The translations under genes and the position numbers were made by a program. Shown piece by piece: positions 10,665 through 49,127 of a stretch of DNA of 64,000 nucleotides. The DNA lies in assembly GCF_054482525.1 (NCBI RefSeq), contig NZ_CM137006.1, one strand, 5' to 3'. Below the pieces are notes generated by a model. That model was not told the DNA's origin. It ran no database searches and worked only from the letters and a program-made list of their open reading frames with translations. How positions within the stretch are numbered: the first letter of the stretch is position 1; each line of letters starts with the position of its first letter.

Positions 10665-12344
10665 TTACAAAGACAGAATCACTTTTGCACCCACCGCCAG
10701 CTGATAGAGGATGGTGGAAATACCACGGGTAACTTCAATGTTTTTCGATTCATATTTCGGCAGAACCATAATCTCATCGCCCGGTTTGAGTGAATCCACA
10801 TCTTCTGCGTTGACGGCTGCACCGTTCTGACGAATGACGATAATTCTGGCGTTACCCGATTTCTGCGTCAGGCCACCACATTTCTCGATGTAATCCTCGG
10901 TGGTCATACCCTTCTGCCAGCTCACCGCGTTCGGGAACAGCACTTCGCCATGAACCATAACCAGCGATGTTTTCTCCGGAATATTGATGACGTCGCCATC
11001 TTCAAGCAGAACAGAATCAATATTGGATTCGTTGAGGATCACTTCACCTTTCGGAACCACGGTGCGTGCTTTCGCCACAAAGCGGCTGATCAGTTGTGCT
11101 TCCTGCATTCGCAGGCTGGCTTCTTCTTTGGTGGATGACTGGGCAGAAAGTGAGGCTTCCTCCAGTTTTTGCAGCGAGAGATTCAGCATCTCTTTCTGAC
11201 GCTGAGCTACTGATGGGCGATAAAGCTGAACCGCGTTCATCTGCGACATGCTGTTCGGGCGGACTTTTTCCAGAACCGCACGCATAGTGGAACCATAAGG
11301 CAGTACCATGGCATGTTCACCGGAGTGCGCGCCTTCAACCCGCACCTGAATGGTGCCGGCATAGCGGTCAGTGCTCACGATTAAGGTATCGCCATTTTGC
11401 AACATACGGCCTGGTGCAGAACTGATCGGATAGTATTCGCTGCGTTTTTGCAGCCCCTGTTTACGCATAATCGTAATGTGAGTCGCGCCAGGCTTAGGGC
11501 GCGCCCAGCTCAACGCTTCCGTTACGGGAATGCTGCTTTCGCGGAACTCAAAGTCGTAGCTGTTAAAGACATCGCCCTGAACGCTGAAAGTATGCTGACG
11601 CGGCCCGACGATGATGGTGTCACCATCGGCGAACTGCGAAAGCCCCAGTTTGCCGTTCAGCAGGAAGTCGTACAGGTTGACGTTGGAGCGCACGCGGTTA
11701 CCGCGCTTGACCACAATATCAACGTAACTTCCGCGCTCTGGATCAACGCCGCCAGCCTTGATCAGATAATTGAGTAACGAATCAGACGTCACACCGCCAT
11801 ACAGACCAGGATTACGCACAAATCCGGTCACGTACACTTTTACTGGCTGCGCCTGTAATAAGGAGGCGTAGACGTTGACGTTGGACTGGTACACTTCTTT
11901 CACTTTGGATGTGACCAGGGCATTTAACTGACTATTACTGACGCCAGCAACTTTCACCGGACCAACGTTCGGCAGGAAAATATTACCTTTGGGATCAATC
12001 TGTAACGCACCATCAAAGGTGAACGCACCCCACAAGCGAACCTGAATGCTATCGCCCGGATTCAGAATATAGTCAGGGTTGAATCCTACCGTCGCACCGC
12101 TATCCGCGCTGGTGCCGTTGAAAAGTTGAGCACCAAACATGCGGCTCATGACCACCGGCGGTGCGGGCGGCGGGGTATTGTCAAAGCCGCTCATGTTTTG
12201 CGTATCCGATTTTTGTCCGCTCAGAATACCGGTAAGCGGCGCTGCTCCTGTCAGGTTTGGGTCAGCGTTAATATCAATGGCCGCGCTGGCCTGCGCAGCC
12301 TGACAGGCGGCAATCAGTAAAATTGATTTCAATAATTTCATCAC
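10665..12344 (-). CDS. kpsD: Capsule polysaccharide export protein KpsD
   Basis: 559 aa with N-terminal signal peptide MMKLLKSILLIAACQAAQASA; Wza/KpsD-like. Confidence 0.9.
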   Translation of the reverse strand: MMKLLKSILLIAACQAAQASAAIDINADPNLTGAAPLTGILSGQKSDTQNMSGFDNTPPPAPPVVMSRMFGAQLFNGTSADSGATVGFNPDYILNPGDSIQVRLWGAFTFDGALQIDPKGNIFLPNVGPVKVAGVSNSQLNALVTSKVKEVYQSNVNVYASLLQAQPVKVYVTGFVRNPGLYGGVTSDSLLNYLIKAGGVDPERGSYVDIVVKRGNRVRSNVNLYDFLLNGKLGLSQFADGDTIIVGPRQHTFSVQGDVFNSYDFEFRESSIPVTEALSWARPKPGATHITIMRKQGLQKRSEYYPISSAPGRMLQNGDTLIVSTDRYAGTIQVRVEGAHSGEHAMVLPYGSTMRAVLEKVRPNSMSQMNAVQLYRPSVAQRQKEMLNLSLQKLEEASLSAQSSTKEEASLRMQEAQLISRFVAKARTVVPKGEVILNESNIDSVLLEDGDVINIPEKTSLVMVHGEVLFPNAVSWQKGMTTEDYIEKCGGLTQKSGNARIIVIRQNGAAVNAEDVDSLKPGDEIMVLPKYESKNIEVTRGISTILYQLAVGAKVILSL

Positions 12345-12364
12345 AAACTCATTCAGCGACAGCG

Positions 12365-13513
12365 TTAATCTCGGTGATCTTCAATAACAGCCAGCAACAG
12401 TTTCAGGGTGCCGAACAGCAGGCAGCACACCAGTAACCAGCAGGCGATCAAATAAGGGATATTTGGAAAAGACGATTCCTGCGGCAACTGTGGCGAACTG
12501 ATCACTGACAGCACCTTGAGCTTACGAGCCGCTTCTACACGGGTCTTTTCAATGGAGGTCAGGGTCAGTTTGTACAGCTCGGTGTTGAACTCTACTTTTG
12601 ATTTGATTTCTTCAAAATCCACCGCCATACGGTTTAGCTTGTCACCCTGCGGCGCTGTGATTTTGCTTTTTTCTTCGTCAATTTGTGCCTGCAATGACTG
12701 AATCGCATTACGCGCACTCACAACTTGCGGGGCGTCCTCACGCAGATACGTCAGCAAGTTCCGCAGGTCCGCTTCCATCTGGATCTTCTGGCCCATCAGC
12801 GTATTCACTAACGTGCTCGCCGCCTGTGCCTGTGCCTGTGGATCCAGAACGTTGTTGTTGTCTTGATAAGAGAGCAATTCCGCTTTGCTGGCGTCCAGAC
12901 GCTGGCGTGCCTTTTCCATCTCCGTTTCTGCAAAGGCAAGCTGGTCACGCGCGATGCGATGTGACATCTCATTGATAAAGCGCTCTGACTCTTTCAGCAC
13001 GGTTTGGTTAAACTTAAGCGCAAATTCCGGGCTAAAGCCCTGCGTCTGAATATTCAGTAATCCGGTTTTATCGTCATACGAGACGTTGATACGGTCCTTG
13101 TAGTACTTCAGGAAGCCTTCTGCGGTTTCATCCTTGCTAAGATGATTAAGAAAATCGAGCCCGCTGTGGCTAAACGCTTCACGAAAATTTAGTTGCTTAT
13201 CCAGCGCCGCCAGCATATCCGGCGAGTTGATGTACTCTTTCAGATACAACGCATCTTCTGCGGAACTGGGGTTAGAGGCACCCAGAAGCAGACCAAAATT
13301 CAGGCTGCCGCTGTTTAAATCATCCGAGCGTTTAATGGCGACTTTCGACTCGCTCATATAGCGAGGCTGGCTGAAGATAGCCAGATAGATCAGCAGCACC
13401 GCCATCGGTGCCAGAATGATGATTTTCGCCAGGTGTTTTTGGATATCTGCCAGTGAGATGGCAGACAGACGAGCACGCATCCAGGATACGGCAGACTTCA
13501 CTTTTATCAACAT
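12365..13513 (-). CDS. kpsE: Capsule polysaccharide export inner-membrane protein KpsE
   Basis: 382 aa; N- and C-terminal hydrophobic segments and coiled-coil middle. Confidence 0.9.
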   Translation of the reverse strand: MLIKVKSAVSWMRARLSAISLADIQKHLAKIIILAPMAVLLIYLAIFSQPRYMSESKVAIKRSDDLNSGSLNFGLLLGASNPSSAEDALYLKEYINSPDMLAALDKQLNFREAFSHSGLDFLNHLSKDETAEGFLKYYKDRINVSYDDKTGLLNIQTQGFSPEFALKFNQTVLKESERFINEMSHRIARDQLAFAETEMEKARQRLDASKAELLSYQDNNNVLDPQAQAQAASTLVNTLMGQKIQMEADLRNLLTYLREDAPQVVSARNAIQSLQAQIDEEKSKITAPQGDKLNRMAVDFEEIKSKVEFNTELYKLTLTSIEKTRVEAARKLKVLSVISSPQLPQESSFPNIPYLIACWLLVCCLLFGTLKLLLAVIEDHRD

Positions 13514-13584
13514 GTAACGATTATCAAAGTTTCAGTGGGGCGCAAACTCAATGAGAGACTAACCTCTCGCACCCCGTTGCTTAA

Positions 13585-14568
13585 TTAGTCGAAAATGCGC
13601 ACAAGGCCAGTGACTTTATTTGCCTTGTTGGTCACCAATAACGTTGAGACGCGGTGCTTTTGCATTTTTTCTTCCGCTTCAATGATCATGGTGTCTTCCG
13701 GTAGCGTCAGCGGTTCACGTGTCATCATCTGCGCAGCCGTGGCGGATGTCAGAGAATCCTCTTTTTCCATAAAGCGACGCAGGTCACCGTCGGTGATAAT
13801 GCCCGCTAGCCCACCTTCTGCGTCTTCTACCATCACCATTCCCTGGCATCCGCTGGTGATACGTTGAATCACGGTTTTAAATGACGCATCCAGCTGTACC
13901 GCAGGAACATCATGCTGCATGACATCAGCAACGCGGGTCAGCAGGCGACGACCTAATGAACCGCCCGGGTGATAGCGCGCAAAATCATTCGGCATAAATT
14001 TGCGTTGGTGGATCATGGCAATCGCCAGCGCATCGCCGATCGCCATCGTCAGCGTGGTAGACGTTGTTGGTGCAAGATTATTCGGGCAGGTTTCATTCGC
14101 CATGTGGAGTTCCAGCACGGCATCAGCATTTTTCGCCAGCGTGGAATTTCCATTATTGGTAATGGCGATAATTCGGTTGCCGAAATTTTTCAGTGAAGGA
14201 ACTAGCTTGAGGATTTCATCCGTTTCACCGCTGGCAGAAATAAGGATCAGAAGATCGTAAGGCGTAATCATGCCCAGATCGCCATGGAAAGCTTCTGCAG
14301 GATGAATAAAGAAACTAGGCGTACCCGTAGAGGCCAGCGTCGCTGACATTTTACGACCGACATGCCCTGATTTACCCATTCCCGAAAGAATAACGTGACC
14401 TTTACAGTTCATTATCAAATTAAGGACACGCTGGTACTGCCCGGAATCCAGTTGTTTAGACAAGTTTTGTAATGCTGCGCCTTGTTCTGCCAGAGTCTGG
14501 CGAACAGAGGTAATTAGATATGGATCGATAGTACTGCTCTGGTCATCAGGTAAATGTCTTTCAGACAT
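13585..14568 (-). CDS. kpsF: Arabinose-5-phosphate isomerase KpsF
   Basis: SIS domain plus CBS pair. Start placed at ATG 14568 (MSERHLPDD), preceded by AAAGGAG, giving 327 aa; the track ORF begins 36 nt upstream at 14604. Confidence 0.85.
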   Translation of the reverse strand: MSERHLPDDQSSTIDPYLITSVRQTLAEQGAALQNLSKQLDSGQYQRVLNLIMNCKGHVILSGMGKSGHVGRKMSATLASTGTPSFFIHPAEAFHGDLGMITPYDLLILISASGETDEILKLVPSLKNFGNRIIAITNNGNSTLAKNADAVLELHMANETCPNNLAPTTSTTLTMAIGDALAIAMIHQRKFMPNDFARYHPGGSLGRRLLTRVADVMQHDVPAVQLDASFKTVIQRITSGCQGMVMVEDAEGGLAGIITDGDLRRFMEKEDSLTSATAAQMMTREPLTLPEDTMIIEAEEKMQKHRVSTLLVTNKANKVTGLVRIFD

Positions 14569-14604
14569 ATCAGCTCCTTTGCACGGAAATAATGCCACAG
14601 TCAC

Positions 14605-15296: not shown

Positions 15297-16722
15297 TAAT
15301 GCCGATCAGTTAAGGATCAGTTGACCGATCCAGTGGCTGTGTAAGAATCCGGAAACGCTCACTTGTTTCCGGATTTTTTTATGCACATTGGACAGGCTCT
15401 TGATCTGGTATCCCGTTACGATTCTCTGCGTAACCCACTGACTTCTCTGGGGGATTACCTCGACCCCGAACTCATCTCTCGTTGCCTTGCCGAATCAGGT
15501 ACTGTAACGCTACGCAAGCGCCGTCTTCCCCTCGAAATGATGGTCTGGTGTATTGTTGGCATGGCGCTTGAGCGTAAAGAACCTCTTCACCAGATTGTGA
15601 ATCGCCTGGACATCATGCTGCCGGGCAATCGCCCCTTCGTTGCCCCCAGTGCCGTTATTCAGGCCCGCCAGCGCCTGGGAAGTGAGGCTGTCCGCCGCGT
15701 GTTCACGAAAACAGCGCAGCTCTGGCATAACGCCACGCCGCATCCGCACTGGTGCGGCCTGACCCTGCTGGCCATCGATGGTGTGTTCTGGCGCACACCG
15801 GATACACTAGAGAACGATGCAGCCTTCCCCCGCCAGACACATGCCGGGAACCCGGCGCTCTACCCGCAGGTCAAAATGGTCTGCCAGATGGAACTGACCA
15901 GCCATCTGCTGACGGCTGCAGCCTTCGGCACGATGAAGAACAGCGAAAATGAGCTTGCTGAGCAACTTATAGAACAAACCGGCGATAACACTCTGACGTT
16001 AATGGATAAAGGTTATTACTCACTGGGACTGTTAAATGCCTGGAGCCTGGCGGGAGAACACCGCCACTGGATGATACCTCTCAGAAAGGGAGCGCAATAT
16101 GAAGAGATCAGAAAACTGGGTAAAGGCGATCATCTGGTGAAGCTGAAAACCAGCCCGCAGGCACGAAAAAAGTGGCCGGGACTGGGAAATGAAGTGACAG
16201 CCCGCCTGCTGACCGTGACGCGCAAAGGAAAAGTCTGCCATCTGCTGACGTCGATGACGGACGCCATGCGCTTCCCCGGAGGAGAAATGGCGGATCTGTA
16301 CAGTCATCGCTGGGAAATCGAACTGGGATACAGGGAGATAAAACAGACGATGCAACTGAGCAGGCTGACGCTGAGAAGTAAAAAACCGGAGCTTGTGGAG
16401 CAAGAGCTGTGGGGTGTCTTACTGGCTTATAATCTGGTGAGATATCAGATGATTAAAATGGCGGAACATCTGAAAGGTTACTGGCCGAATCAACTGAGTT
16501 TCTCAGAATCATGCGGAATGGTGATGAGAATGCTGATGACATTGCAGGGCGCTTCACCGGGACGTATACCGGAGCTGATGCGCGATCTTGCAAGTATGGG
16601 ACAACTTGTGAAATTACCGACAAGAAGGGAAAGGGCCTTCCCGAGAGTGGTAAAGGAGAGGCCCTGGAAATACCCCACAGCCCCGAAAAAGAGCCAGTCA
16701 GTTGCTTAACTGACTGGCATTA
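15297..16722 (+). mobile_element. IS4 insertion sequence, 1426 bp, intact
   Basis: Terminal inverted repeats TAATGCCGATCAGTTAAGG (15297-) and CCTTAACTGACTGGCATTA (-16722); 11-bp direct repeat CAATCATCAGG at 15286-15296 and 16723-16733. Confidence 0.9.
15363..16709 (+). CDS. IS4 transposase
   Basis: 448-aa ORF inside IS4; true start may be the internal MHIGQALDL Met. Confidence 0.9.
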
Positions 16723-16814
16723 CAATCATCAGGCTCTTTTTGAGTCATATGCGCCGATAATCAACTGTCTTGAACGTAACAATTATGGAGCAACATGATG
16801 CTACGATTCATTTC

Positions 16815-17000
16815 ACTCTTCGTTCTTTCTGAGCATTGCGTTCAGGATGGTCAGCAATTTACGCATACAGTCAACCAGCGCCACTTTTTTGGTTTTTCCG
16901 GCTGCTGACAGATGCATGTAAAACGCCTTTATCACCGGATTAAACCAGGTTACCACAAGCGCTGCCATGTGCAGGGCTGCTCTTGCCTCCGTACGCGCAC
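16815..17000 (-). pseudogene. IS110-family transposase, C-terminal fragment
   Basis: Minus-strand translation ends ...VALVDCMRKLLTILNAMLRKNEE*, the conserved IS110-family C-terminus; no N-terminal part. Similar DNA at 56393-56460. Confidence 0.5.
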
Positions 17001-17325: not shown

Positions 17326-18168
17326 TCAGGCTGAGAGCACAGAAGGAAAGTACCTGGCTATTATATCGTTAATTCTGTCAATCAGTTCCAGCCTTTTGAA
17401 AGTGATGTGTGCAGATCCCTTCTTAAAGTATTTAATGATGAACATCTCGTCTTCATAGCGCTCTTTACCCTGAACGGACTGGATGTGACCATCCAGACGA
17501 ATAGTGATGTTTTCCCGGTTGTCGGGGATCGGTTTGCCGCTGAACAGATGTAGCATTCTTTCCAGGTCGACGAGTCGGTCAGTCTGTTGCCCGGTGATAA
17601 GATGAAACCCCCACCGGTCCCACCTCACCAGGTTGTTGACGATAATTTTACTGCCAAATTTGCAGGGGCAATTGGTTTTGTAATTCCAGCTCAGTCCCCT
17701 GAAGACGTTGATCACCCCTCGCTCAAACACCTCATCCTTATTCTGGTGTAGTTGTTCAAATGTGCTCAGAATGTTCGCTTCACTGATTTCCGGAAAATTA
17801 TCGTGCTCCAGTGACCGGTACCATGTATCACGGGCCTGTGCATCCATTAAGGAAAGCATCCCTGAACGTTGCATCAGGTCACGCCAGATTTCGCGATCGA
17901 GATTGCGTGTGATAGCTTTCATTGCGGTTTCCGGTTTCTCCATCAGCCAGCAGCCGCAGCGAAAATCCTGTTTCATGGCCCAGTCCGGGGCGGCTTTACC
18001 GCCAATACTTTCTGTCATTGCTGAGATTTCAGCCAGTTGCCGGATAAGTGTGTCGATTTGCAGCAGTGTACTTTTTCGTACAGCCAGAATGTGGCGGATA
18101 CTGGTTGAGCAGATAACGTCCGTATGCCCGGTGACCACTTCCGGATGGGAGATTGTGATGTTTGACAT
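17326..18168 (-). CDS. Conserved island protein, probably DUF4942 family (CP4-44-like module, copy 1)
   Basis: 280 aa; paralog of 45243-46109; occupies the module-terminal position after the YeeW-like genes. Confidence 0.6.
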   Translation of the reverse strand: MSNITISHPEVVTGHTDVICSTSIRHILAVRKSTLLQIDTLIRQLAEISAMTESIGGKAAPDWAMKQDFRCGCWLMEKPETAMKAITRNLDREIWRDLMQRSGMLSLMDAQARDTWYRSLEHDNFPEISEANILSTFEQLHQNKDEVFERGVINVFRGLSWNYKTNCPCKFGSKIIVNNLVRWDRWGFHLITGQQTDRLVDLERMLHLFSGKPIPDNRENITIRLDGHIQSVQGKERYEDEMFIIKYFKKGSAHITFKRLELIDRINDIIARYFPSVLSA

Positions 18169-18252
18169 TATCGGTTTCCCTTTTGGTTTATAAACGAAAA
18201 CGCCAGCCGTATTCAGGCTGGCGTCAGGGTAATGAAGCGTGGTGAGTGATAT

Positions 18253-18450
18253 TCACCGGTTCTGGTGCAGAAGCTGCAGATGACGCAGGGTACGGACATC
18301 CTCTCTGGCCTGTTCGATACAGGGCAACAGTGCTGCCGAATCCGTTCTATCCTCATCGTTGTCAAAGATAATTCCCGATTCGCAGTCGATATTGTCCTGC
18401 AGCCACGCAATGAGGATATCCAGCGCTGTTTCCGTGGTTAATGATTTCAT
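18253..18450 (-). CDS. Small conserved protein downstream of yeeW-like gene (copy 1)
   Basis: MKSLTTETALDILIAWLQDNIDCESGIIFDNDEDR...; start placed at ATG 18450 behind AGGAACAAC; paralog at 46194-46391. Confidence 0.5.
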   Translation of the reverse strand: MKSLTTETALDILIAWLQDNIDCESGIIFDNDEDRTDSAALLPCIEQAREDVRTLRHLQLLHQNR

Positions 18451-18461
18451 GTTGTTCCTGG

Positions 18462-18950
18462 TTATCAGTCGAAAGTGGGCAGGTCCGGCAGACATTCAGC
18501 GCTGGCATCCAGATGAATGAGACTGACGCCATAACGTTGGATGAGTGTGACAAACAGACGACGGAACGTTTTTGACAGCCCCAGGCGTTTAAGCCGCAGA
18601 ACCGGATATGATCACGCATCGGTACGTAACAGATATCCGCTACCTGTGAAATGAATCCATTCTGATTCGCCGAAGTCACTGGTCTGGTGTGACAGTGAGT
18701 ACAACCAGGCGTTGTCCGTTTCCGTGATATGTGCGGTACTGCAGCGTATGCCGGCAAGGGTTGCAAATGGCGGTGGTGTGCAGGTTGACTGTTGGTCGGA
18801 TTCCTCTGCCACACGGAGTGAATAATCGTTTTCAGCGACGTTATTAATCAGTTCAGTGAGATTAACACCATCGACGTCAACGACAATTCGCCCCATGTTC
18901 AGTGCCTGCACATTAATGCTGTCGGCTTCCAGCATCAGGGAAAGTTTCAT
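18462..18950 (-). pseudogene. YeeW-like protein, truncated by a TGA nonsense codon at codon 113 (copy 1)
   Basis: Copy 2 (46403-46894) reads through TGG (W) where copy 1 has TGA; downstream frame in copy 1 still encodes SYPVLRLKRLG... Confidence 0.55.
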
Positions 18951-19321
18951 CGTTTCTCCGGATGCTTACCCAGGGTAATGTTATTTACCGTTCTGTAATT
19001 GTCGCGGGTCATCAGGCCGGTCGCCCTGCGAGCCCGGAGGATATCGATGCTGTTTATTAACTGAGAGCGGGTACAGGCACTGAATTCCGGCTGGTCGGTA
19101 CGCACCAGTGCGTATTTTTCAACAAGAAAGTTCACTGCATCGCACAGTGAAATGCCAGCTTCAATATGCTGCTCAATCACACGTTCATCGGCGAACGGTG
19201 TGTCATTCAGCGTAAGGCCGTAATGCTGGTCCAGCAACCGGGACAGCAGTGTCTGCCAGATGGTGACGGGAGACGGGCAGCGCGATGCCTCCCGTACGTG
19301 TGTGTCGGGTAATGTTTTCAT
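18947..19321 (-). CDS. cbtA: CbtA/YeeV-family toxin
   Basis: 124 aa, [56 protein letters not shown]... Confidence 0.85.
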
Positions 19322-19410
19322 ACTGAAGGTTTTCCTGATATGCAGAGATGAAAAATGGAAAAGTGGCGTGGTGAAAGCACCAGGCCGGAGCAGAAGGTTA
19401 TTCCGGTGGT

Positions 19411-19791
19411 TTACTTTTTCGTTTCGGATGTTGGATAAACAGCCAGATAAACGTAACCACAGCTGCCGAGGGTGTCGGCTTCGCAGGTCAGCCCTTTCGC
19501 ATACAGTGTGACGGTATGCTGATGGCGGGGATTCAGTTCACCGCCGGTGAGCATGAGTTCCAGTTGTTTCATCAGCAGCGGAAAGGCCTGGTCCAGGTGG
19601 TACGCATCCGCGTCGCTGAACAGGCCTCTGATACCGGCGCGGTCGGCAAGGTAATGCAACCGGTTACCCTCCTGCACCAGACGTGCCCCGAAACAGGGCG
19701 TCACGGTGCAGGGTAGCCCCCCACCAGGGGCGGTTGTTGTTGTCGGGATGCGTTGTCCCGGGGAGTGTGTCTGACACGATAAAATCCTCAC
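19411..19791 (-). CDS. cbeA: CbeA/YeeU-family antitoxin, N-terminal frameshift relative to copy 2
   Basis: Residues after ~25 match YeeU ([31 protein letters not shown]...); copy 1 has a 6-C run at 19727-19732 where copy 2 has 5. Confidence 0.7.
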
Positions 19792-19856
19792 AGAAAATCG
19801 GTTAAGAATGGTCCGGTGGTGGCGATAATTCTGCTCATCTGAATGCCCTTCCAGAC

Positions 19857-20078
19857 TCAGTTCAGGGTGACGCTCATCAGCCGGACATACGGGCCAAAAC
19901 TGTCCTTACGGCGTTCAGCAAACACAGCCAGCACACCGGGAATATCCTGCACTTCACGACCGGTATACGTCTCAGCACTGCCGTGCCAGCGGTACTTACC
20001 GGTACAGAACGGAAAAAGACGGGATGCAGGATGCTGTTGGTGAATACGCATGGCTTCACCACGGGTGATAATTTTCAT
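19857..20078 (-). CDS. yeeT: DUF987/YeeT-like protein
   Basis: 73 aa, MKIITRGEAMRIHQQHPASRLFPFCTGKYRWHG...; conserved position between radC-like and cbeA. Confidence 0.7.
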   Translation of the reverse strand: MKIITRGEAMRIHQQHPASRLFPFCTGKYRWHGSAETYTGREVQDIPGVLAVFAERRKDSFGPYVRLMSVTLN

Positions 20079-20146
20079 GATGGGATACCTCTGAAGACAG
20101 AAGATAAAAGTGAAAACAAGTGTGATGTGGTTGTGACGGTGACGGG

Positions 20147-20638
20147 TTAAAGCAGACCGTGTTCGGCAAAGGAGAAAACCTGGTTGCCACCGACTATCAG
20201 ATGGTCCGGCACCCGGATATCCACCAGGCCCAGTGCCTGTACCAGACGTTCCGTGATAAGGCGGTCTGCCTTACTGGGTGTGACTTCACCGGACGGGTGA
20301 TTGTGCGCCAGCACCACGGCAGCGGCATTGTGGTACAGGGCGCGTTTAATCACTTCCCGGGGATGGACTTCCGTGCGGTTGATGGTGCCGGTGAAGAGGG
20401 TTTCACCGGCAATCAGCTGATTCTGGTTATTCAGATACAGTACCCGGAACTCTTCACGCTCCAGTCCCGCCATGTTCAGAATCAGCCATTCCCGTGCCGC
20501 ACGGGTGGAGGTGAAGGCCACGCCGGGTTCATGAAGATGGCGTTCCAGGGTTTTCAGGGCCCGCAGAATGAGACTGCGCTCGCCGGGCGTCATCTCTCCT
20601 GGCAGAAAGGAAAGTTGTTGCATTGTGCTTCTCTCCAT
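20147..20638 (-). CDS. yeeS: RadC-like JAB-domain protein (YeeS/YkfG/YfjY family)
   Basis: 163 aa; JAMM-like motif HNHPSGEVTPSKAD. Confidence 0.85.
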   Translation of the reverse strand: MERSTMQQLSFLPGEMTPGERSLILRALKTLERHLHEPGVAFTSTRAAREWLILNMAGLEREEFRVLYLNNQNQLIAGETLFTGTINRTEVHPREVIKRALYHNAAAVVLAHNHPSGEVTPSKADRLITERLVQALGLVDIRVPDHLIVGGNQVFSFAEHGLL

Positions 20639-21124
20639 TCAGTCGATGATGCGCATAATGGCGCTGCATTCCGGATGCTGCAGGGCGTAATCCCGCAGCC
20701 GGTAATAATGGACCGTCATGGCATAACACTCCGTACGACAGGCATGATGACTGTACGTCATCAGACAGGCAGCAATGCCGGCGGCTTCCGGGCTCATTTC
20801 AGCGCGGTTACCGTTCATGACATTGAACAGTACCCATGTTTCGTCATCATCGTCATCCGGTTCGGGTGCCATAAATGCCCCTCCGTTATTCAGTGTGTAC
20901 AGATTCCAGATACCACCGCAGTAGTCTTCACACAGACGGTCCATCCAGCCGAAGACACGGGGCTCCAGGGTCACCCACTGTGGAATGAGGCCAAAGTGCT
21001 GTGGCCAGAAGCTGATGCACTGTTCATCAGGGACGGGAGTGGCAACCAGTTGAGACTGGTTATTCCCTGATGCAGTAGTTACGGAAACAGAAGGTGTGGT
21101 GGAATTATGTGAAACGGTTGTCAT
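20639..21124 (-). CDS. Antirestriction protein (KlcA/ArdB-like, YfjX/YafX family)
   Basis: Start placed at ATG 21124 (MTTVSHNS...) behind AAGGA; acidic DDDDDE stretch; paralog at 48551-49036. Confidence 0.8.
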   Translation of the reverse strand: MTTVSHNSTTPSVSVTTASGNNQSQLVATPVPDEQCISFWPQHFGLIPQWVTLEPRVFGWMDRLCEDYCGGIWNLYTLNNGGAFMAPEPDDDDDETWVLFNVMNGNRAEMSPEAAGIAACLMTYSHHACRTECYAMTVHYYRLRDYALQHPECSAIMRIID

Positions 21125-21214
21125 GATATTATTCCTTATAAAAAGCAAATGAATGAAGAAGGCTCGGGGGCAGGGACAGACGTGAGTCAGGACGGCGCTT
21201 TCAGGTAAACGGTA

Positions 21215-22033
21215 TCAGCGCATGTTCTCCAGCAGCGTTTCCGCCATCACCCATAATGCGCGATTGAGCTTAATATCGGTGTCGATGCTGTGAATGGCCC
21301 GGGTATGGATACGTTTTCCTCTGGCACTGCGGCCGGAAATTCCGCCTTTCAGCATATTCTCCTGGATGGTCTGATATGCGCTCCACAGGTCCTTACCGTA
21401 ATCCTCCCTGCGTCGTGGCGTAAGAATGTCAGCGGTGGTGACGGGCTGATGTTCGTCACCATAACGGTAAGTCAGGGCCGCCTGTGCCAGCGCCTGGCGT
21501 GCCGGTGGCGGCAGGACCAGCGACTGCATGGCATCACGCTTCTCCTCTATCCGGTCAAACACGCCCACCACCTCGTAAGCCCCTTCGATAACTTTCTCCA
21601 CTACATTTCCCCGGTGTGGAACACGCACTTCCCCCAGAGACTGGCCACAGACGCACCCGTTCTGGCAGACGAACCTGAAGTAACCCGGCAGCATCTGGTA
21701 GCTGGAGGTACCGTCATGAGAGTTGAGCAGAATAATTTCAGGGACATGTTCTCCGTTTATCTCTCCGGCCCGCCGCAGACGCAGCATGTGTTTGGTATAT
21801 TCCCGGCGGCTCTGGTCGCGCACACGGGTCTGGCAGGCGAAGAACGGCTGAAAGCCTTCCCGCTGCAGATTTTCCAGGACGGTAATGGTGGGAATGTACG
21901 CATACCGTTCACTGCGGGAGGTGTGCCGGTCTTCCCCAAAAATACTGGGTACATGGCGTATCAGTTCTTCATGTGTCAGCGGACGGTCACGGCGTATCTG
22001 GTTTACATGACCAAAACGACTTGCTAATCGCAT
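21215..22033 (-). CDS. DUF932-family protein (YfjQ/YafZ-like)
   Basis: 272 aa; conserved module position; paralog at 49128-49946. Confidence 0.7.
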   Translation of the reverse strand: MRLASRFGHVNQIRRDRPLTHEELIRHVPSIFGEDRHTSRSERYAYIPTITVLENLQREGFQPFFACQTRVRDQSRREYTKHMLRLRRAGEINGEHVPEIILLNSHDGTSSYQMLPGYFRFVCQNGCVCGQSLGEVRVPHRGNVVEKVIEGAYEVVGVFDRIEEKRDAMQSLVLPPPARQALAQAALTYRYGDEHQPVTTADILTPRRREDYGKDLWSAYQTIQENMLKGGISGRSARGKRIHTRAIHSIDTDIKLNRALWVMAETLLENMR

Positions 22034-22427: not shown

Positions 22428-25274
22428 TCAGAAAGTCACGTTCAGTGTGGCCTGACCGTTATAACCTTCAGCGCTGCTGCCGCTGACACTGTGGGCATAA
22501 CCGGCCTGAACGCCCAGGGTGATATTTTCCCGGACACGGGCTTCCAGTCCGGCCTGCAGGTCCAGTGACGTGCCATTCTGGGACGGTGAGAACGTCATGT
22601 TACTGCCGGCTGCGGCTGTACCCATGCTCATGTCTCCCCGGGAGCTGAAGGTGCGGATAACAGAAGGCTGTACCCACCAGTTCACCGGCAGTTCACTCAC
22701 GCTGTGTTTGGCACTGTCGCGCAGGGTGTCACGGGATGAGGTGCCTTCGCCAAAGGTCATATCGTTGTGGCTGCCCAGACGGAAACCGGCACGCACATGT
22801 TGTGCACTGCCATGCCCGAACTTCACATAACCGGCGTTATCCTGACCGTCATCCAGGGAGAGCCCCTGCCAGGTGTACTGCAGTTGTGGCTCCAGCATCA
22901 GGTTGTCAGTGATACTGAAGGGCAGACCGGTTTCCAGTGAGCCCAGCCAGCCCCAGCCCCGGGCGCGGAAGTCGTTATTGTCCGATGACGCTTTCATGCT
23001 GTGGCGGGTTCCCTGTGCCACAATGTCAGCCCACAGGCCGGAGGATGTGTGTACCAGATTCAGGTATCCGCCCAGACTGCCGGCATCATCCCGGACCGTG
23101 CCGGCGCGGGAGCCGTCATCATCCTTAACATCAACGGAAGAATGGCCTGCAGCACCATACACCCCTGTCGTCAGAGACATACCGGCAACCTCTGTTCTGA
23201 GCAGGTCACCCTCCAGACGGACGAAGCCATAGCTGCCGCTGCTTTCCGGCGTGGCCCCACGGGCAATACCGCCGTTGTTATCGTGCCCGAGATGACCGCC
23301 CTGAATGCTGAGACGGACGCTGTTATTTTCACCGTTTACACCGGTCTGATGGCTGCGGGAGCCTGCCAGAATCCGGTCATAGTCCATTGCCTGTGTCAGC
23401 ATGGAGGCATACAGGGGGACTTCAGCACGATAAGCATTTTCACTGCGCAGGTACCAGTCTTCATCGCTGTCACGGTTCAGGGTGTAGTTAAAGGCGCCGG
23501 CCTGAAGCGGGCGGCTCAGGGCAAACGCACCTTCTTCTGTGGTGGCACCATTCTGTGCATCCACAACCCGGATACCCTGTCCGGTGGTTGCCACCCCGAG
23601 GTTACTGTTTCCGACATTTGTGAACGCAAGCCAGGTTTTGCCGGTTGCCTGGCCACCATTAATCACCAGCTGGTCAGAGGCATTGCTGCCATCAAGGCGA
23701 ACACGCATATTGATGGTGCCCCCCTGACCGGTGAGGTTACTGGTGGTCAGTTTATGGAACGTTACCGGGGAGTCGCCTTTTGCAACAGCACGGCTCAGCG
23801 CGGCATCCGGTGTCGTCTGATTATCAAAGTGAATCTCTCCTGCGTTAACAATATCGCCGGTACTGACCACATCACCATTCAGTACCATGCTGGCGCCTTT
23901 ACTGAGCTGTGTTCTGCCACTCAGACTTCCCCCGGCAGCCAGCGTCAGTGTTCCACGATGTCCGACAGTGGTGTTGCCTGCCTGTCCCCCGGCATTAACC
24001 GTAAAGCTGCCGCCATTTTCCAGTAGCAGGCCGCTGGCCTGCCCGGATATGCCATCAATACTGAACTTACCGCTGGCATTGGTCCCCTCAACAGTGGCAC
24101 CACTGTCTGCTATCAGGGCACCACCGGATGTCATGGTGACATCTGTTGCCTTACCACCGGCAGACACTGCCAGGGTACCGCCGTCATCCACCAGTGTTTT
24201 CTGCGCTGAATGGCCCTCCAGTACATCCAGGCGACCGCCGGACTCCAGAACAACGCCGTCAGCCTTACCGTTTTCCACCGTGAAATTGCCCAGACGGTTG
24301 CTGCCGGTGACGGTTGCCGCCGTACTGGTGACCAGTGCGCCGCCCTGCGTCAGGGTGACATTCGTGGCTGTACCACCGGCGTTCACCTGCAGTTTGCCTT
24401 TCTGGTTAACGGTGGTGAAATCCGCCAGACCACCTTCCTTGATAATCTGCCAGCCGTCACTGTTAACAACAGTGCCAGACGCCGTACCGCCGTTGTGCAC
24501 ATACTGGTACCCCCCATTCAGCGTGGTATCCAGTGCGTGACCATGTACAGTCTGGTCGCCGCCGGCATAAACCACAGTGGTATTTGCCGTTCCTTCAGCA
24601 GCCACAATCTGACGACCATTTTTATTGATGGTGGTGCGTACGGCATCTCCGTAGACGGTCTGCCCGGTATCACCATTTTCCGCATCCGGTCCTCCTTCCG
24701 CGCCAGTATTCACAACCGTGTCGGTTGCCATTGCGCCGGATTTGACGGCCTGCCAGCCCTTCTCATTAATGACGGTACCCGTTGCAATCCCGCCTTCATG
24801 TACCCACTGCTCACCGCCGTTCAGAGTGGTGTTCACTGCCTGCCCCTGAAGGCTCTGTCCGCCTCCGGCCCTGATAACCGTGTCTGAAACGCTTCCTCCG
24901 GCATTCACTCTCTGAAGACCACCACCGGTGACAGTAGTGTTGTTGGCGATACCGCCATTTTGTATCCATTGCCCGCCGGTATTGGCCTCGTTATCCGGCC
25001 CATACTCCAGACCGGTACTGATGGTCATTCCGTTGGCTGTACCGAAGACAATCTGGTTGTCATGATTTTCCAGTGCTCCGCCGCTCACGGTTTCTCCCGC
25101 CTGTACAACCGTGTCAGCAGCCAGTACCGGGAGTGATGTGACAGCAGCAAGAGACAGCGCAACCGCCACACCGGCGCGTTTTCCCCGTGAGCGGGCCAGT
25201 TCGGAGGCCACCACCAGGGTGCCCGTAATGTGATTCCATACCAGCCTGTAGCTGGTGTTCAGATGTCGTTTCAT
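22428..25274 (-). CDS. flu: Antigen 43 (Ag43/Flu) self-associating autotransporter adhesin
   Basis: Start at [18 protein letters not shown] (ATG 25274 behind AAGGAAAA); extended signal peptide, repetitive passenger, C-terminal beta-barrel ending ...[12 protein letters not shown]. Track ORF starts 75 nt upstream. Confidence 0.9.
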
Positions 25275-25487
25275 CAGCTTTTCCTTACAGAGGGTGAATA
25301 AAAAAGCCGGTACCCACAAATGTGGATACCGGCAGGTACAAAACAGCATGGTCAGATAAAGTGGTTTTTCCCGGACATAAATGCTTCCCCTCTCTCATCC
25401 GCCTGAGAAGTATCAGTCCGTTGTGTGCAATTCCGTTCTGCATGATGAAGAGATTCAGCTGCCTTTTCGCAGGCCATTAACCACTAT

Positions 25488-25531
25488 AAACGATCGATAT
25501 AAACGATCGATATCTGTTTTATCGATCGTTT
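25488..25531 (-). promoter_or_regulatory. agn43 phase-variation switch: three GATC sites (Dam/OxyR region)
   Basis: GATC at 25492, 25505 and 25524 inside AAACGATCGATATAAACGATCGATATCTGTTTTATCGATCG, about 220-250 bp upstream of the Ag43 start. Confidence 0.6.
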
Positions 25532-42858: not shown

Positions 42859-44121
42859 CTATTTTAATGGATTGTTAATCTTTGCATATTCAAACGGGCT
42901 GATACATTGTTCTCTGTTCGCACCCAGAAAATCTGCCCACCACTGTAGCATCAGTCGACGTTCTTCCAGATGTTCTGCTTTATGGATATATGCAGCACGT
43001 ACACCATTACGCTCCTGATGGCTCATCTGACGTTCCACAGCATCGCGGGACCACAAACCTGATTCAATCAATGCACTGCACGCCATCGCCCGGAATCCAT
43101 GACCACAGACTTCCTGGGTTGTGTCATATCCCATCACCCTCAGGGCTTTATTTACAGTATTTTCACTGATCGGTTTACGCGGGTCATGTGCTCCCGTAAA
43201 GATCAGACCATTTTCACCAGCCCATGTCTGTAGTTCTGTCAGTATGGCTACAGCCTGTTTGCTGAGTGGCACAAGATGTGGTGTTCGCATCTTGGAGCCC
43301 CGGTGTGAGTATTTTACGCCTGGCAGAGGTTCGCGTTCGGCTGGAATAGTCCACATGGCATTGTCAATATCAATTTCAGACCAGCGGGAATATCTGAGTT
43401 CACTGGAACGAATAAAAACCAGTAAATTCAGCATAACTGCCAGTCGGGTGACAGGCTGACCTTTATAACCGTCAATACGCGACAGAAGTTCAGGCAGGCG
43501 TGAAAGATCCAGAGCAGGGCGATGCTGGCGTTTTACCGTGGTCAATGCACCAGCCATATCCAGAGCCGGGTTATATCTGATGATGCCAGACTGTACGGCA
43601 TAACGCATTACAGCAGATATTCTTTGCTGCAGACGACTGGCGATTTCATAAATTTGTTTTGCTTCTGCAGCACGAACAGGGATAAGCAGGTCCGGGGTAT
43701 TGAGTGTTGTGATATCCCGGTTGCCGATAAAGGGGAAAACGTGTGTCTCGAGGCTTTTGATTACTTTATCGCTGTGTGATTGTGCCCATTGTTTATTACT
43801 GGCATGCCAGCGTCGTGCAATATGTTCAAAAGAGAGTTGTAAATCAGGGACTACTTTTTTAGCTCTTTTTTGTTCGCAAGGGTCAATCCCCTCTGAAATC
43901 AGTTTTCGGGCCTCATCCCGTTTTGTACGAGCTTCGGAGAGAGAAACTTCTGGATATACACCAAGTGCCAGAGTCTTCTCCTTACCCAGAATACGATAAC
44001 GGAGACGCCAGTAACGGGAACCATTAGGATGAACCAGCAGGAACATGCCAGCCCCGTCAGTGAGTTTATAAGCCTTGTCAGTGTGCTTTGCAGCCCGGAT
44101 TTTTGCGTCAGTCAGTGCCAT
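42859..44121 (-). CDS. int: P4/CP4-57-type tyrosine integrase
   Basis: 420 aa; MALTDAKIRAAKHTDKAYKLTDGAGMFLLVHPNGSRYWRLRYR N-terminus; C-terminal catalytic region with R...HxxR...Y. Confidence 0.9.
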   Translation of the reverse strand: MALTDAKIRAAKHTDKAYKLTDGAGMFLLVHPNGSRYWRLRYRILGKEKTLALGVYPEVSLSEARTKRDEARKLISEGIDPCEQKRAKKVVPDLQLSFEHIARRWHASNKQWAQSHSDKVIKSLETHVFPFIGNRDITTLNTPDLLIPVRAAEAKQIYEIASRLQQRISAVMRYAVQSGIIRYNPALDMAGALTTVKRQHRPALDLSRLPELLSRIDGYKGQPVTRLAVMLNLLVFIRSSELRYSRWSEIDIDNAMWTIPAEREPLPGVKYSHRGSKMRTPHLVPLSKQAVAILTELQTWAGENGLIFTGAHDPRKPISENTVNKALRVMGYDTTQEVCGHGFRAMACSALIESGLWSRDAVERQMSHQERNGVRAAYIHKAEHLEERRLMLQWWADFLGANREQCISPFEYAKINNPLK

Positions 44122-44584: not shown

Positions 44585-44911
44585 TTATGGCTGCCAGAAA
44601 TGATCTGATGGTTTGTCGTCTGGCTCTGCAAGTACCCTGTTGATATCCCGGGAACCATGAACGATACGTTCGATACGAACTTCAGTATCCAGTACCCTGA
44701 ACAGCAGAAGGTAACGACCATACGAACAACCTCTGATCCCAGCCCCTAACTCGGGTCTTTCTCTGTAGAGTACTGGCGATTCGGCTATCAACAGACATTG
44801 TTGGTAAAGCTCTTCGGTAAAACTGATTGCACGGACAGGATTATCCTGAGCGATCCAGTCACCTATAGCTTCAAGATCGTGTTCTGCTAATGGTGAAACA
44901 GTCAGTTTCAT
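44585..44911 (-). CDS. parE: ParE/RelE-superfamily toxin (type II TA)
   Basis: 108 aa; 4-nt overlap with the upstream antitoxin gene. Confidence 0.75.
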   Translation of the reverse strand: MKLTVSPLAEHDLEAIGDWIAQDNPVRAISFTEELYQQCLLIAESPVLYRERPELGAGIRGCSYGRYLLLFRVLDTEVRIERIVHGSRDINRVLAEPDDKPSDHFWQP

Positions 44912-45171
44912 ATTGGCTGTTCACCTTCTGCCATCTTTTTGTATTTGTGCGTCAGTCGCCCGAATACCTCTTCAGCACTTTTACTTTCACCGCTGTTGAT
45001 GCCTGCGGCCACGGCGCTCTGGAGTGATTCAAGCTTTATCTGCTGTTCCCGTTCTTCCAGAGCACGAAGTCCGGCACGAATGACTTCACTTGTATTGTTG
45101 TACCGACCACTTTCTATTTGTTCGCGGATAAACGTTTCAAAGTAAGGACTGAGGGATACACTGGTAGGCAT
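44908..45171 (-). CDS. parD: ParD-like antitoxin (type II TA)
   Basis: 87 aa; ...SEVIRAGLRALEEREQQ... ParD-type fold signature. Confidence 0.7.
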   Translation of the reverse strand: MPTSVSLSPYFETFIREQIESGRYNNTSEVIRAGLRALEEREQQIKLESLQSAVAAGINSGESKSAEEVFGRLTHKYKKMAEGEQPI

Positions 45172-45242: not shown

Positions 45243-46109
45243 TTATGCCTTGCGGCTTTTGTTCACTGTGCTTGCCAGGGCTTCCGGGTAGTGTCTGGCA
45301 ATAATATCATTAAGCCTGTCAACCAGCTCTGGTTTCCTGAACGTGATGTGCGCGGAGCCCTTCTTAAAGTATCTGATGCTGAACATCTCATCTTCATAGT
45401 CCTCTTTACCCTGAACAGACTGGATGTGATCATCCAGATGAATGGTGATGTTTTCCCGGTTGTCGGGGATCGGTTTGCCGCTGAACAGGTGCAGCATTCT
45501 TTCCAGATCGGCAAGTCGATCGGCCTGTTGTCCGGTGATAAGATGAAACCCCCACCGGTCCCACCTCACCAGATTGTTGACGATAATTTTACTGCCAAAT
45601 TTGCAGGGTGAATTGGTTTTGTAATTCCAGCTCAGTCCTCTGAAAACGTTGAGCACCCCTCGCTCAAACACTTCATCTTTGTTCTGGTGCAGTTGTTCAA
45701 ACGTGCTCAGGATATTTGCTTCGCTGATTTCCGGAAAATTATCGTACTCCAGTGACCGGTACCATGTATCACGGGCTTGTGCATCCATTAATGACAGCAT
45801 CCCTGAACGTTGCATCAGATCACGCCAGATTTCGCGGTCAAGGTTGCGGGTGATGGCTTTCATTGCGGTTTCCGGTTTTTCCATCAGCCAGCAACCGCAG
45901 CGAAAATCCTGTTTCATGGCCCAGTCCAGTGCAGTTTTACCTCCGATGCTTTCCGTCAGCACCGAGATTTCTGCCAGTTGCCGGATAAGTGTGTCGATTT
46001 GCAGCAGCGCACTCTTTCGTACAGCCAGAATGTGGCGGATGCTGGTTGAGCCGATAACGTCCGTATGCCCGTTGACCACTTCCGGACGGGGGGCTGTGAT
46101 TTCAGACAT
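45243..46109 (-). CDS. Conserved island protein, probably DUF4942 family (copy 2)
   Basis: 288 aa; paralog of 17326-18168. Confidence 0.6.
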   Translation of the reverse strand: MSEITAPRPEVVNGHTDVIGSTSIRHILAVRKSALLQIDTLIRQLAEISVLTESIGGKTALDWAMKQDFRCGCWLMEKPETAMKAITRNLDREIWRDLMQRSGMLSLMDAQARDTWYRSLEYDNFPEISEANILSTFEQLHQNKDEVFERGVLNVFRGLSWNYKTNSPCKFGSKIIVNNLVRWDRWGFHLITGQQADRLADLERMLHLFSGKPIPDNRENITIHLDDHIQSVQGKEDYEDEMFSIRYFKKGSAHITFRKPELVDRLNDIIARHYPEALASTVNKSRKA

Positions 46110-46193
46110 AATCGATATTCCTTTTTGCAGATAAATGAAAACGCCAGCCCTGTTCAGGCTGGCGTCAGTGGAATGAAGTCTGGTGAGTAAGAC

Positions 46194-46391
46194 TCACCGG
46201 TTCTGTTGCAGAAGCTGCAACTGGCGCAGGATACGGATATCCTCCCTGGCCTGTTCGATACAGGGCAACAGTGCTGCCGAATCCGTTCTATCCTCATCGT
46301 TGTCAAAGATAATTCCCGATTCGCAGTCGATATTGTCCTGTAGCCACGCAATCAGAATATCCAGTGCGGTTTCCGTGGTTAATGATTTCAT
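46194..46391 (-). CDS. Small conserved protein downstream of yeeW-like gene (copy 2)
   Basis: Paralog of 18253-18450; start at ATG 46391, 11 nt after the yeeW-like stop. Confidence 0.5.
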   Translation of the reverse strand: MKSLTTETALDILIAWLQDNIDCESGIIFDNDEDRTDSAALLPCIEQAREDIRILRQLQLLQQNR

Positions 46392-46402
46392 GTTGTTCCT
46401 GG

Positions 46403-46894
46403 TTACCAGTCGAAAGTGGGCAGGTCCGGCAGACATTCAGCGCTGGCATCCAGATGAATGAGACTGACGCCATAACGTCGGGTAAGTGTGACAACCAGAC
46501 GACGGAACGTTTTTGACAGGCCCAGGCGCTTAAGCCGCAGAACCGGGTATGACCACGCATCGGTACGTAACAGATATCCGCTACCTGTGAAATGAATCCA
46601 TTCTGATTCGCCGGTGCCATTCGTCTGATGTGACAGCGAGTACAGCCAGGCGTTGTCCTTTGCCGTGATATGCGCGGTACTGCAGCGTATGCCGGTAAGG
46701 GCCGCCGCAGATGATGGCGTGCGCTCTGCTGATGTCCGGTCAGATTCATCAACAACACGAAGGGAGTAACCGTTATCGCAGACCACGTTAATCAGTTCAG
46801 CGAGAGTAACACCATCGACGTCAACGACAATGCGCCCCATGTTCAGTGCCTGCACGTTAATGCTGTCGGCTTCCAGCGTCAGGGCCAGTTTCAT
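46403..46894 (-). CDS. yeeW: YeeW-like protein, full length (copy 2)
   Basis: 163 aa; intact counterpart of the truncated copy at 18462-18950. Confidence 0.65.
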   Translation of the reverse strand: MKLALTLEADSINVQALNMGRIVVDVDGVTLAELINVVCDNGYSLRVVDESDRTSAERTPSSAAALTGIRCSTAHITAKDNAWLYSLSHQTNGTGESEWIHFTGSGYLLRTDAWSYPVLRLKRLGLSKTFRRLVVTLTRRYGVSLIHLDASAECLPDLPTFDW

Positions 46895-47268
46895 TGTTTC
46901 GCCCCCGGATGTTTACCCAGGGTAATGTTATTTACCGTTCTGTAATTGTCGCGGGCCATCAGGCCGGTTGCCCGGCGGGCCCGGAGGATATCAATACTGT
47001 TTATTAACTGAGAACGGGTACAGGCGCTGAATCCTGGCTGGTCGGTACGTACCAGTGCGTATTTTTCAACGAGAAAGTTCACCGCATCGCACAGTGAAAT
47101 GCCTGCCTCAATATGCTGCTCAATCACACGTTCATCAGCGAACGGTGTGTCATTCAGTGTGAGGCCGTAATGCTGGTCCAACAGTCGGGTGAGCAGTGTC
47201 TGCCAGATGGTGACGGGAGACGGGCAGCGCGATGCCTCCCGTACGTGTGTGTCAGGTAATGTTTTCAT
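46891..47268 (-). CDS. cbtA: CbtA/YeeV-family toxin (copy 2)
   Basis: Start at MKTLPDTHV (47268); the track ORF extends upstream to 47370. Confidence 0.85.
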   Translation of the reverse strand: MKTLPDTHVREASRCPSPVTIWQTLLTRLLDQHYGLTLNDTPFADERVIEQHIEAGISLCDAVNFLVEKYALVRTDQPGFSACTRSQLINSIDILRARRATGLMARDNYRTVNNITLGKHPGAKQ

Positions 47269-47314
47269 CTTAAGTTCTCTGTAACTGGTAGTGCTAAAGG
47301 TGAGATATTCGGGG

Positions 47315-47689
47315 TTATGAGGTGGTTGCGGGTGCCAGTGTCGGATAAACAGCCATATAAACGTAACCACAACTGCTGAGGGTATCGGCTTTGCAGGTCA
47401 GCCCTTTTGCATACAGCGTGACGGTATGCTGATGGCGGGGATTCAGTTCACCGCTGGTGAGCATGAGTTCCAGTTGTTTCATCAGCAGCGGAAAGGCCTG
47501 GTCCAGATGGTACGCATCCGCGTCGCTGAACCGGCCTCTGATACCGGCGCGGTCTGCAAGGTAATGCAACCGGTTACCCTCCTGCACCAGACGTGCCCCA
47601 AAACAGGGCGTCACGGTGCAGGGTAGCCCCCACCAGGGGCGGTCGTTGTTATCGTCGGGATGCGTTGTCCCGGGGAGAGTGTCTGACAC
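47315..47689 (-). CDS. cbeA: CbeA/YeeU-family antitoxin (copy 2, intact frame)
   Basis: 124 aa, [42 protein letters not shown]...; GTG start. Confidence 0.8.
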   Translation of the reverse strand: MSDTLPGTTHPDDNNDRPWWGLPCTVTPCFGARLVQEGNRLHYLADRAGIRGRFSDADAYHLDQAFPLLMKQLELMLTSGELNPRHQHTVTLYAKGLTCKADTLSSCGYVYMAVYPTLAPATTS

Positions 47690-47768
47690 GATAAAATCCT
47701 CACAGAAAATTGGTTAAGAATGGTCCGGTGGTGGCGATAATTCTGCTCTTCTGAATGCCCTTCCAGAC

Positions 47769-47990
47769 TCAGTTCAGGGTGACGCTCATCAGCCGGACAT
47801 ACGGGCCAAAACTGTCCTTACGGCGTTCAGCAAACACGGCCAGCACACCGGGAATATCCTGCACTTCACGACCGGTATACGCTTCAGCACTGCCGTGCCA
47901 GCGGTATTTGCCGGTACAGAACGGAAAAAGACGGGATGCCGGATGCTGACGGTGAATACGCATGGCTTCGCCACGGGTGATGATTTTCAT
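47769..47990 (-). CDS. yeeT: DUF987/YeeT-like protein (copy 2)
   Basis: 73 aa paralog. Confidence 0.7.
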   Translation of the reverse strand: MKIITRGEAMRIHRQHPASRLFPFCTGKYRWHGSAEAYTGREVQDIPGVLAVFAERRKDSFGPYVRLMSVTLN

Positions 47991-48058
47991 AGTGGGATAC
48001 CTCTGAAGACAGAAGATAAAAGTGAAAACAGGTGTGATATGGTTGTGGCGGTGACGGG

Positions 48059-48550
48059 TTAAAGCAGACCGTGTTCCGCAAAGGAGAAAACCTGGTTGCC
48101 ACCAACTATCAGATGGTCCGGTACCCGGATATCCACCAGGGCCAGTGCCTGTACCAGGCGTTCCGTGATAAGGCGATCTGCCTTACTGGGGGTGACTTCA
48201 CCGGACGGGTGGTTGTGTGCCAGTATCACGGCAGCGGCATTGTGGTACAGGGCACGTTTAATTACCTCCCGGGGATGGACTTCCGTGCGGTTGATGGTGC
48301 CTGTGAAGAGGGTTTCACCGGCAATCAGCTGATTCTGGTTGTTCAGATACAGTACCCGGAACTCTTCCCGCTCCAGTCCCGCCATGTTCAGAATCAGCCA
48401 TTCCCGTGCCGCATGCGTGGAGGTGAAGGCCACACCGGGTTCATGAAGATGGCGGTCCAGGGTTTTCAGGGCCCGCAGAATGAGGCTGCGCTCGCCGGGC
48501 GTCATCTCTCCGGGCAGAAAGGAAAGCTGTTGCATTGTGCTTCTCTCCAT
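48059..48550 (-). CDS. yeeS: RadC-like JAB-domain protein (copy 2)
   Basis: 163 aa; HNHPSGEVTPSKAD. Confidence 0.85.
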   Translation of the reverse strand: MERSTMQQLSFLPGEMTPGERSLILRALKTLDRHLHEPGVAFTSTHAAREWLILNMAGLEREEFRVLYLNNQNQLIAGETLFTGTINRTEVHPREVIKRALYHNAAAVILAHNHPSGEVTPSKADRLITERLVQALALVDIRVPDHLIVGGNQVFSFAEHGLL

Positions 48551-49036
48551 TCAGTCGATGATGCGCATAATGGCGTTGCATTCCGGATGCTGCAGGGCGT
48601 AATCCCGCAACCGATAATAATGGACCGTCATGGCATAATTCTCTGTACGACAGGCGTGATGACTGTACGCCATCAGACAGGCGGCAATGCCGGCGGCTTC
48701 CGGGCTCATTTCAGCGCGGTTGCCGTTCATGGCATTGAACAGTACCCATGTTTCGTCATCATCGTCATCCGGTTCGGGTACCATAAATGCCCCACCGTTG
48801 TTCAGGGTGTACAGATTCCAGATACCACCGCAGTAGTCTTCGCAAAGACGGTCCATCCAGCCGAAGACACGGGGCTCCAGGGTCACCCACTGTGGAATGA
48901 GGCCAAAATGTTGCGGCCAGAAACTGATGCGCTGTTCATCAGGGACGGGAGTGGCAACCAGTTGAGACTGGTTATTCCCTGGTGCAGTGGTTACGGAAAC
49001 AGAAGGCGTGGTGGAGCTATGCGAAAAGGTTGTCAT
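48551..49036 (-). CDS. Antirestriction protein (KlcA/ArdB-like, copy 2)
   Basis: 161 aa paralog. Confidence 0.8.
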   Translation of the reverse strand: MTTFSHSSTTPSVSVTTAPGNNQSQLVATPVPDEQRISFWPQHFGLIPQWVTLEPRVFGWMDRLCEDYCGGIWNLYTLNNGGAFMVPEPDDDDDETWVLFNAMNGNRAEMSPEAAGIAACLMAYSHHACRTENYAMTVHYYRLRDYALQHPECNAIMRIID

Positions 49037-49127
49037 GAGATGATTCCTTATAAAAAGTAAATGAATGGAAGAATGCCCGGGGACTGGTACAGACGTGAGT
49101 CAGGGTTGCACTTTCAGGGAAACAGCA

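Follow-up and report, generated by a model that had tools for sequence, protein, structure and literature searches.

A frameshifted cbeA antitoxin gene and a truncated DUF5983 gene beside an intact cbtA toxin gene in a CP4-44-like island module of E. coli

Two CP4-44-like modules next to the kps genes

The window (the whole 64-kb stretch of DNA that was analysed) holds an E. coli genomic island adjoining the kps capsule genes, and this island is the setting of two modules (Table 1). Both have the same gene order by Pfam and RefSeq annotation, running from DUF932 through an antirestriction gene, RadC/JAB, DUF987 (YeeT), the CbeA/YeeU antitoxin, the CbtA toxin, DUF5983 (yeeW-like), and DUF957 to DUF4942, with repeat segments that are 84–96% identical and about 27.9 kb apart. 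The order and the families are those of the CbtA/CbeA (YeeV/YeeU) type IV locus of CP4-44 in K-12 (yeeS-yeeT-cbeA-cbtA-yeeW), and modules 1 and 2 are paralogous CP4-44-like accessory-gene blocks. They are separated by a P4-type integrase gene and a ParD/ParE type II toxin-antitoxin pair, an arrangement that points to two islands integrated in tandem; no tRNA genes were found by ARAGORN across the 64-kb window.

Several further elements surround module 1. Between kpsF and its DUF4942 end, the IS4 insertion is accompanied by a fragment of an IS110 transposase (~16800–17000); the IS4 insertion is common to the window and strain AH50 and absent from strains Z0117EC0005 and 20A24. An Ag43/flu autotransporter gene occupies 22428–25349, and just upstream of it lies an IS102 sRNA (RF00124, 79.4 bits; 25293–25529, minus strand), the sole Rfam match in the window at the gathering threshold, with none in either module. 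A promoter scan, uninformative on expression, returned no minus-strand promoter-like site just upstream of module 1 cbeA, and the terminator-like hairpin 3′ of DUF957 (18225–18199) says nothing on expression.

Table 1. Positions of the modules, their antitoxin, toxin, and DUF5983 genes, and neighbouring features in the window.
Feature	Position	Strand	Remarks
kpsS-to-kpsF	~6615–14604	minus	
IS4 insertion	15363–16709		448-aa transposase ORF; after the kps genes, in the interval from kpsF to DUF4942 of module 1
Module 1	17326–22033	minus	
DUF5983 (yeeW-like) pseudogene, module 1	18465–18950	minus	open part 18612–18950, 112 aa
Premature TGA, codon 113 of module 1 DUF5983	18612–18614	minus	TGG in module 2 and strain 20A24
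Intact cbtA toxin gene, module 1	18947–19321	minus	124 aa; CbtA_toxin match
cbeA (YeeU-family type IV antitoxin) pseudogene, module 1	19411–19777	minus	conserved GTG start to original stop
Premature TAA reached from canonical cbeA start after frameshift	19664–19666	minus	
6-G homopolymer on coding strand of module 1 cbeA	19717–19722	minus	6 C on plus strand; +1 insertion
Out-of-frame GTG opening a 126-aa ORF	19789–19791	minus	no Shine-Dalgarno sequence upstream
P4-type integrase	42859–44121		420 aa; between modules
ParD/ParE type II toxin-antitoxin pair (parDE)	44585–45171		between modules
Module 2	45243–49946	minus	
Intact DUF5983 gene, module 2	46403–46894	minus	163 aa
Intact cbtA, module 2	46891–47265	minus	
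Intact cbeA, module 2	47315–47689	minus	124 aa; 5-G run (5 C on plus strand) at 47627–47631

Coding capacity of cbtA, DUF5983, and cbeA in module 1

The toxin gene of module 1 is intact, as it had appeared to be in the preliminary description. Its 124-aa ORF has a full-length match to Pfam CbtA_toxin (PF06755; 1–112 of 112, E = 5.5e-62), the product shares 89% identity with K-12 CbtA and retains F65, and the same sequence stands in RefSeq as an intact CDS (WP_016242964.1). The CbtA of module 2 differs from it by three internal residues (S27T, E79G, and T105A) and by the last four residues. In the CbtA of both modules and of 20A24 the sequence reads …A-S-R14-C15-P…, compared to …A-S-S14-R15-P… in K-12 CbtA. 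For the K-12 protein, F65 mediates binding to FtsZ and R15 binding to MreB, and an engineered R15C change specifically abolishes the MreB interaction (PMC5624674).

Differences between the modules were checked by pairwise alignment and by direct counting of bases. The alignment and the ORFs bear out the earlier reading of a nonsense codon in the yeeW-like gene, with TGA in place of TGG and a product shortened from 163 to 112 aa. The open part of module 1 DUF5983 has a 4-nt overlap (ATGA) with the cbtA stop and retains a complete N-terminal domain (DUF5983_N), while its C-terminal domain is matched only at 3–43 of 90 in Pfam because of the TGA. The two domains whose completeness was taken to mark the gene (PF25638 + PF19419) are thus not both complete in module 1, whereas in module 2 the N- and C-terminal domains are each complete. 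The original frame of the module 1 gene ends in TGA (18465–18467) where module 2 has TGG-TAA, and even without the nonsense codon the product would still be one residue shorter (…TFD compared to …TFDW). Truncated forms of DUF5983 are found elsewhere, as the 64-aa yeeW of K-12 and a partial pseudogene in CFT073, from which it appears that the gene decays repeatedly; the K-12 remnant is short by truncation, whereas that of module 1 carries a nonsense codon.

In cbeA, the count of six C in module 1 compared to five in module 2, given by the preliminary description, was upheld, but the position was not: the run had been placed at 19727–19732, 10 bases from its true location (Table 1), and that stretch of module 1 holds a run of four G. 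The intact cbeA alleles of module 2, K-12, and CFT073 all have the 5-G run, so the 6-G run is the derived state, and the +1 frameshift sets module 1 cbeA apart from that of K-12. The cbeA copies of the two modules also differ by an in-frame 3 nt (GAT) 20 nt upstream of the run, a difference missed in the preliminary description; it was considered as a lesion and rejected, as it is in frame and also occurs in the intact CFT073 allele (the DNNN N-terminal variant). Both the nonsense codon and the frameshift are found in module 1 and not in module 2, in agreement with the earlier view of them as copy-specific and inactivating.

The consequence of the frameshift depends on the start codon. The normal start of module 1 cbeA is GTG 19777, which has GAGGA 7 nt upstream (anti-SD duplex, −6.0 kcal/mol) and is the start used by PGAP. 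Translation from this codon runs through 20 residues and a further 17 out-of-frame residues before the premature TAA, for a peptide of 37 aa. The replacement of the first ~25 residues that had been proposed presumes a start at GTG 19791 instead, which is without an SD sequence of its own (anti-SD duplex, +0.3 kcal/mol) and overlaps the ribosome-binding site of GTG 19777. The "altered N-terminus" of the 126-aa ORF is most likely an accident of ORF calling that corresponds to no protein.

Downstream of the frameshift, the original frame of module 1 cbeA still matches Pfam CbeA_antitoxin (PF06154) over 4–100 of 101 (E = 3.9e-52), compared to 1–100 of 101 for module 2 cbeA, the product of which is 93% identical to K-12 CbeA and matches PDB entries 2INW and 2H28. 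K-12 cbeA aligns closely with the in-frame part of the module 1 gene and with the whole of the module 2 gene. Module 1 cbeA also lies in the position of the family, as the co-oriented gene that immediately precedes a cbtA-family toxin gene, from which it is separated by 89 nt, and it lacks an uninterrupted frame from the conserved start. Judged by sequence and synteny, module 1 cbeA is a pseudogene of the CbeA/YeeU family and would not be a functional member of it.

That module 1 nonetheless makes a working antitoxin appears improbable. Such a product could come from GTG 19791 with its new 25-residue N-terminus, from a +1 slip at the GGG-G run, or from re-initiation at GTG 19704 or TTG 19659, and the downstream frame that retains most of the Pfam domain is fully open. 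Moreover, YfjZ has no counterpart of the first ~14 residues (its structures, PDB 2EA9 and 2JN7, begin to align at residue 19 of module 2 CbeA), so the extreme N-terminus of CbeA is dispensable, a family comparison that covers only those ~14 residues. Both internal codons are in frame and preceded by SD-like sequences, GTG 19704 (−9.3 kcal/mol) opening a 97-aa product and TTG 19659 (−10.8 kcal/mol), 5 nt past the premature TAA, an 82-aa product. Restarts at these codons would, however, drop 27–42 residues, and with them the conserved beginning (WWGLPC) of the Pfam domain, and a single-sequence structural model, unreliable at a pLDDT of 45, would place the first two or three strands within the lost region. 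The internal start candidates occur in intact alleles as well, and were therefore not selected as a rescue. For the remaining routes, GTG 19791 is without an SD sequence, and an efficient +1 shift would not be expected given that the slippery site is followed by a common Ala codon. An N-truncated CbeA from the internal starts may be made, as a minor rival to complete loss.

Occurrence and history of the two lesions

A set of 5,426 complete E. coli genomes was searched with positions 18200–19900 of the window; genomes that matched had a median of three matching places (maximum, 16). Seven complete genomes, with dog, chicken, poultry, and human as hosts, were 100% identical to the window over 1,701 bp with both lesion sites included. 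In two of these, AH50 (NZ_CP169755.1; ACETQM_RS04215 and RS04225) and Z0117EC0005 (NZ_CP098223.1; NBY12_RS18865 and RS18855), PGAP annotates the identical sequence as two pseudogenes, a DUF5983 gene with an "internal stop" and a "frameshifted" YeeU family antitoxin. In public annotation both genes thus already stand as pseudogenes. AH50 resembles the window in having the IS4 insertion, the kps genes nearby, and a second module, and is the closest RefSeq complete genome over 25 kb (97.9%, in three pieces). In both strains the surrounding island differs from that of the window by insertions and deletions, whereas the locus itself has no difference. In Z0117EC0005 (NZ_CP098223.1, 5948–8095), the copy of module 1, again with the two lesions, breaks off within the RadC/JAB gene and borders on fragments of citF/citX, an indication that the block with the pseudogenes was carried through further rearrangement of the island.

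It is almost certain that neither the extra C nor the TGA is a sequencing or assembly error over a true sequence of five C and TGG, the outcome that the preliminary description had named as a refutation of the lesions. Homopolymer indels are the commonest error of long reads, and the window is identical to no RefSeq complete genome over 25 kb. The seven independently assembled complete genomes nevertheless agree base for base over the 1,701 bp, at both sites, an eighth (20A24) has the 6-G run on a diverged haplotype, and the TGA is a substitution and not a homopolymer error.

The frameshift is rare: an exact 33-mer with the 6-G run occurred once each in eight of the 5,426 genomes, and a 61-mer returned the same eight. 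All eight carriers have exactly six G on one allele background. In 20A24 the cbeA allele with six G is the same as that of the window at 363 of 367 nt, while DUF5983 has TGG and the haplotype is 95.8% identical overall. The frameshift consequently predates the nonsense mutation, and the comparison of haplotypes indicates that it persisted through divergence or recombination of the flanking haplotype. When the common allele was altered in silico to six or to four G, neither version had an exact match (1,027 genomes, 1,408 places). The restriction to a single background indicates one old insertion and no hotspot.

These distributions also bear on the suggestion, made in the preliminary description, that the homopolymer change could be reversible. 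A single-base change in length, in a run of G/C close to the 5′ end of the cbeA coding region, is a likeness to the contingency loci in which homopolymer tracts drive phase variation, and on such a reading the G run would reversibly switch the antitoxin of module 1. The tract is just 5–6 nt long, however, and shows no length polymorphism among carriers or other alleles, which is the variation among related genomes that defines a phase-variable locus. With six G confined to one allele and neither 6-G nor 4-G variants of the common allele among 1,027 genomes, nothing points to repeated or reversible changes in tract length, and the frameshift survived while the flanking haplotype diverged or recombined to 95.8% identity and a second mutation arose. 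A phase-variable tract is accordingly given hardly any credence, and the G run appears to behave as a fixed mutation.

An intact toxin gene beside an interrupted antitoxin gene

The pairing of an altered antitoxin with an intact toxin, to which the preliminary description had drawn attention, loses much of its force in light of published work on the K-12 systems and of the intact cbeA that module 2 carries with a near-identical toxin, 28 kb from module 1. In the account of Masuda et al. 2012 given in PMC5086665, insofar as it deals with K-12 CbeA, antitoxins of the CbeA type do not bind the toxin and counteract it by stabilising or bundling FtsZ and MreB polymers. The toxin YkfI is neutralised by two non-cognate antitoxins, YfjZ and CbeA, deletion of all three K-12 antitoxin genes leaves growth and viability unaffected, and the operons do not regulate their own expression (Wen et al. 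2017, PMC5371832). Antitoxins of this class are thus dispensable at native expression and cross-complemented by paralogues (PMC5371832).

The locus is very probably a case of ordinary, stable, inherited gene decay, with two pseudogenes in module 1 of a redundant island. As proposed, a G was inserted into the G5 run of module 1 cbeA, so that ribosomes starting at the normal GTG would make the 37-residue peptide and stop, and a TGG-to-TGA substitution later interrupted DUF5983. The lesions would since have been inherited and not switched. The intact cbtA could be tolerated because the antitoxins act on the cytoskeleton and not by binding their own toxin, because paralogous antitoxins cross-neutralise, and because the toxin may be harmless at native expression levels. 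Module 1 would then yield little or no functional CbeA, and the module 2 copy or other copies likely cover for it as a source of antitoxin in trans. Besides the internal starts, two points weigh against gene decay: the toxin is intact in both frameshift haplotypes, which might mean that it is still under selection, and the cross-neutralisation data come from plasmid-expressed K-12 paralogues, which are other alleles than those of the window.

If the orphaned module 1 toxin depended on antitoxin supplied by module 2 or by other paralogues, this would amount to a cross-island addiction, under which loss of the neighbouring island would be penalised and the decayed module would stabilise the intact paralogue. 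The triple deletion in K-12 counts against such a dependence, which is considered very unlikely. Read as gene decay, the locus involves neither an assembly error nor a phase-variable switch, and it poses no toxin-antitoxin paradox. On a small scale, it documents that an intact type IV toxin gene has remained next to a defunct antitoxin gene across several lineages of E. coli, and this persistence fits the published evidence of dispensable, interchangeable antitoxins.

The spacer between cbeA and cbtA occurs in two unrelated forms, one of ~89 nt in module 1 (19322–19410), 20A24, and K-12 (about 88–89 nt, the same length as in module 1) and one of ~49 nt in module 2 (47266–47314). Only 27 of 89 positions are identical between the spacers of the two modules, compared to >90% identity in the flanking genes, and the short spacer of module 2 comes with a different C-terminal tail of CbeA. 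Unrelated spacers between genes this similar suggest mosaic recombination, with a probable breakpoint at the 3′ end of cbeA.
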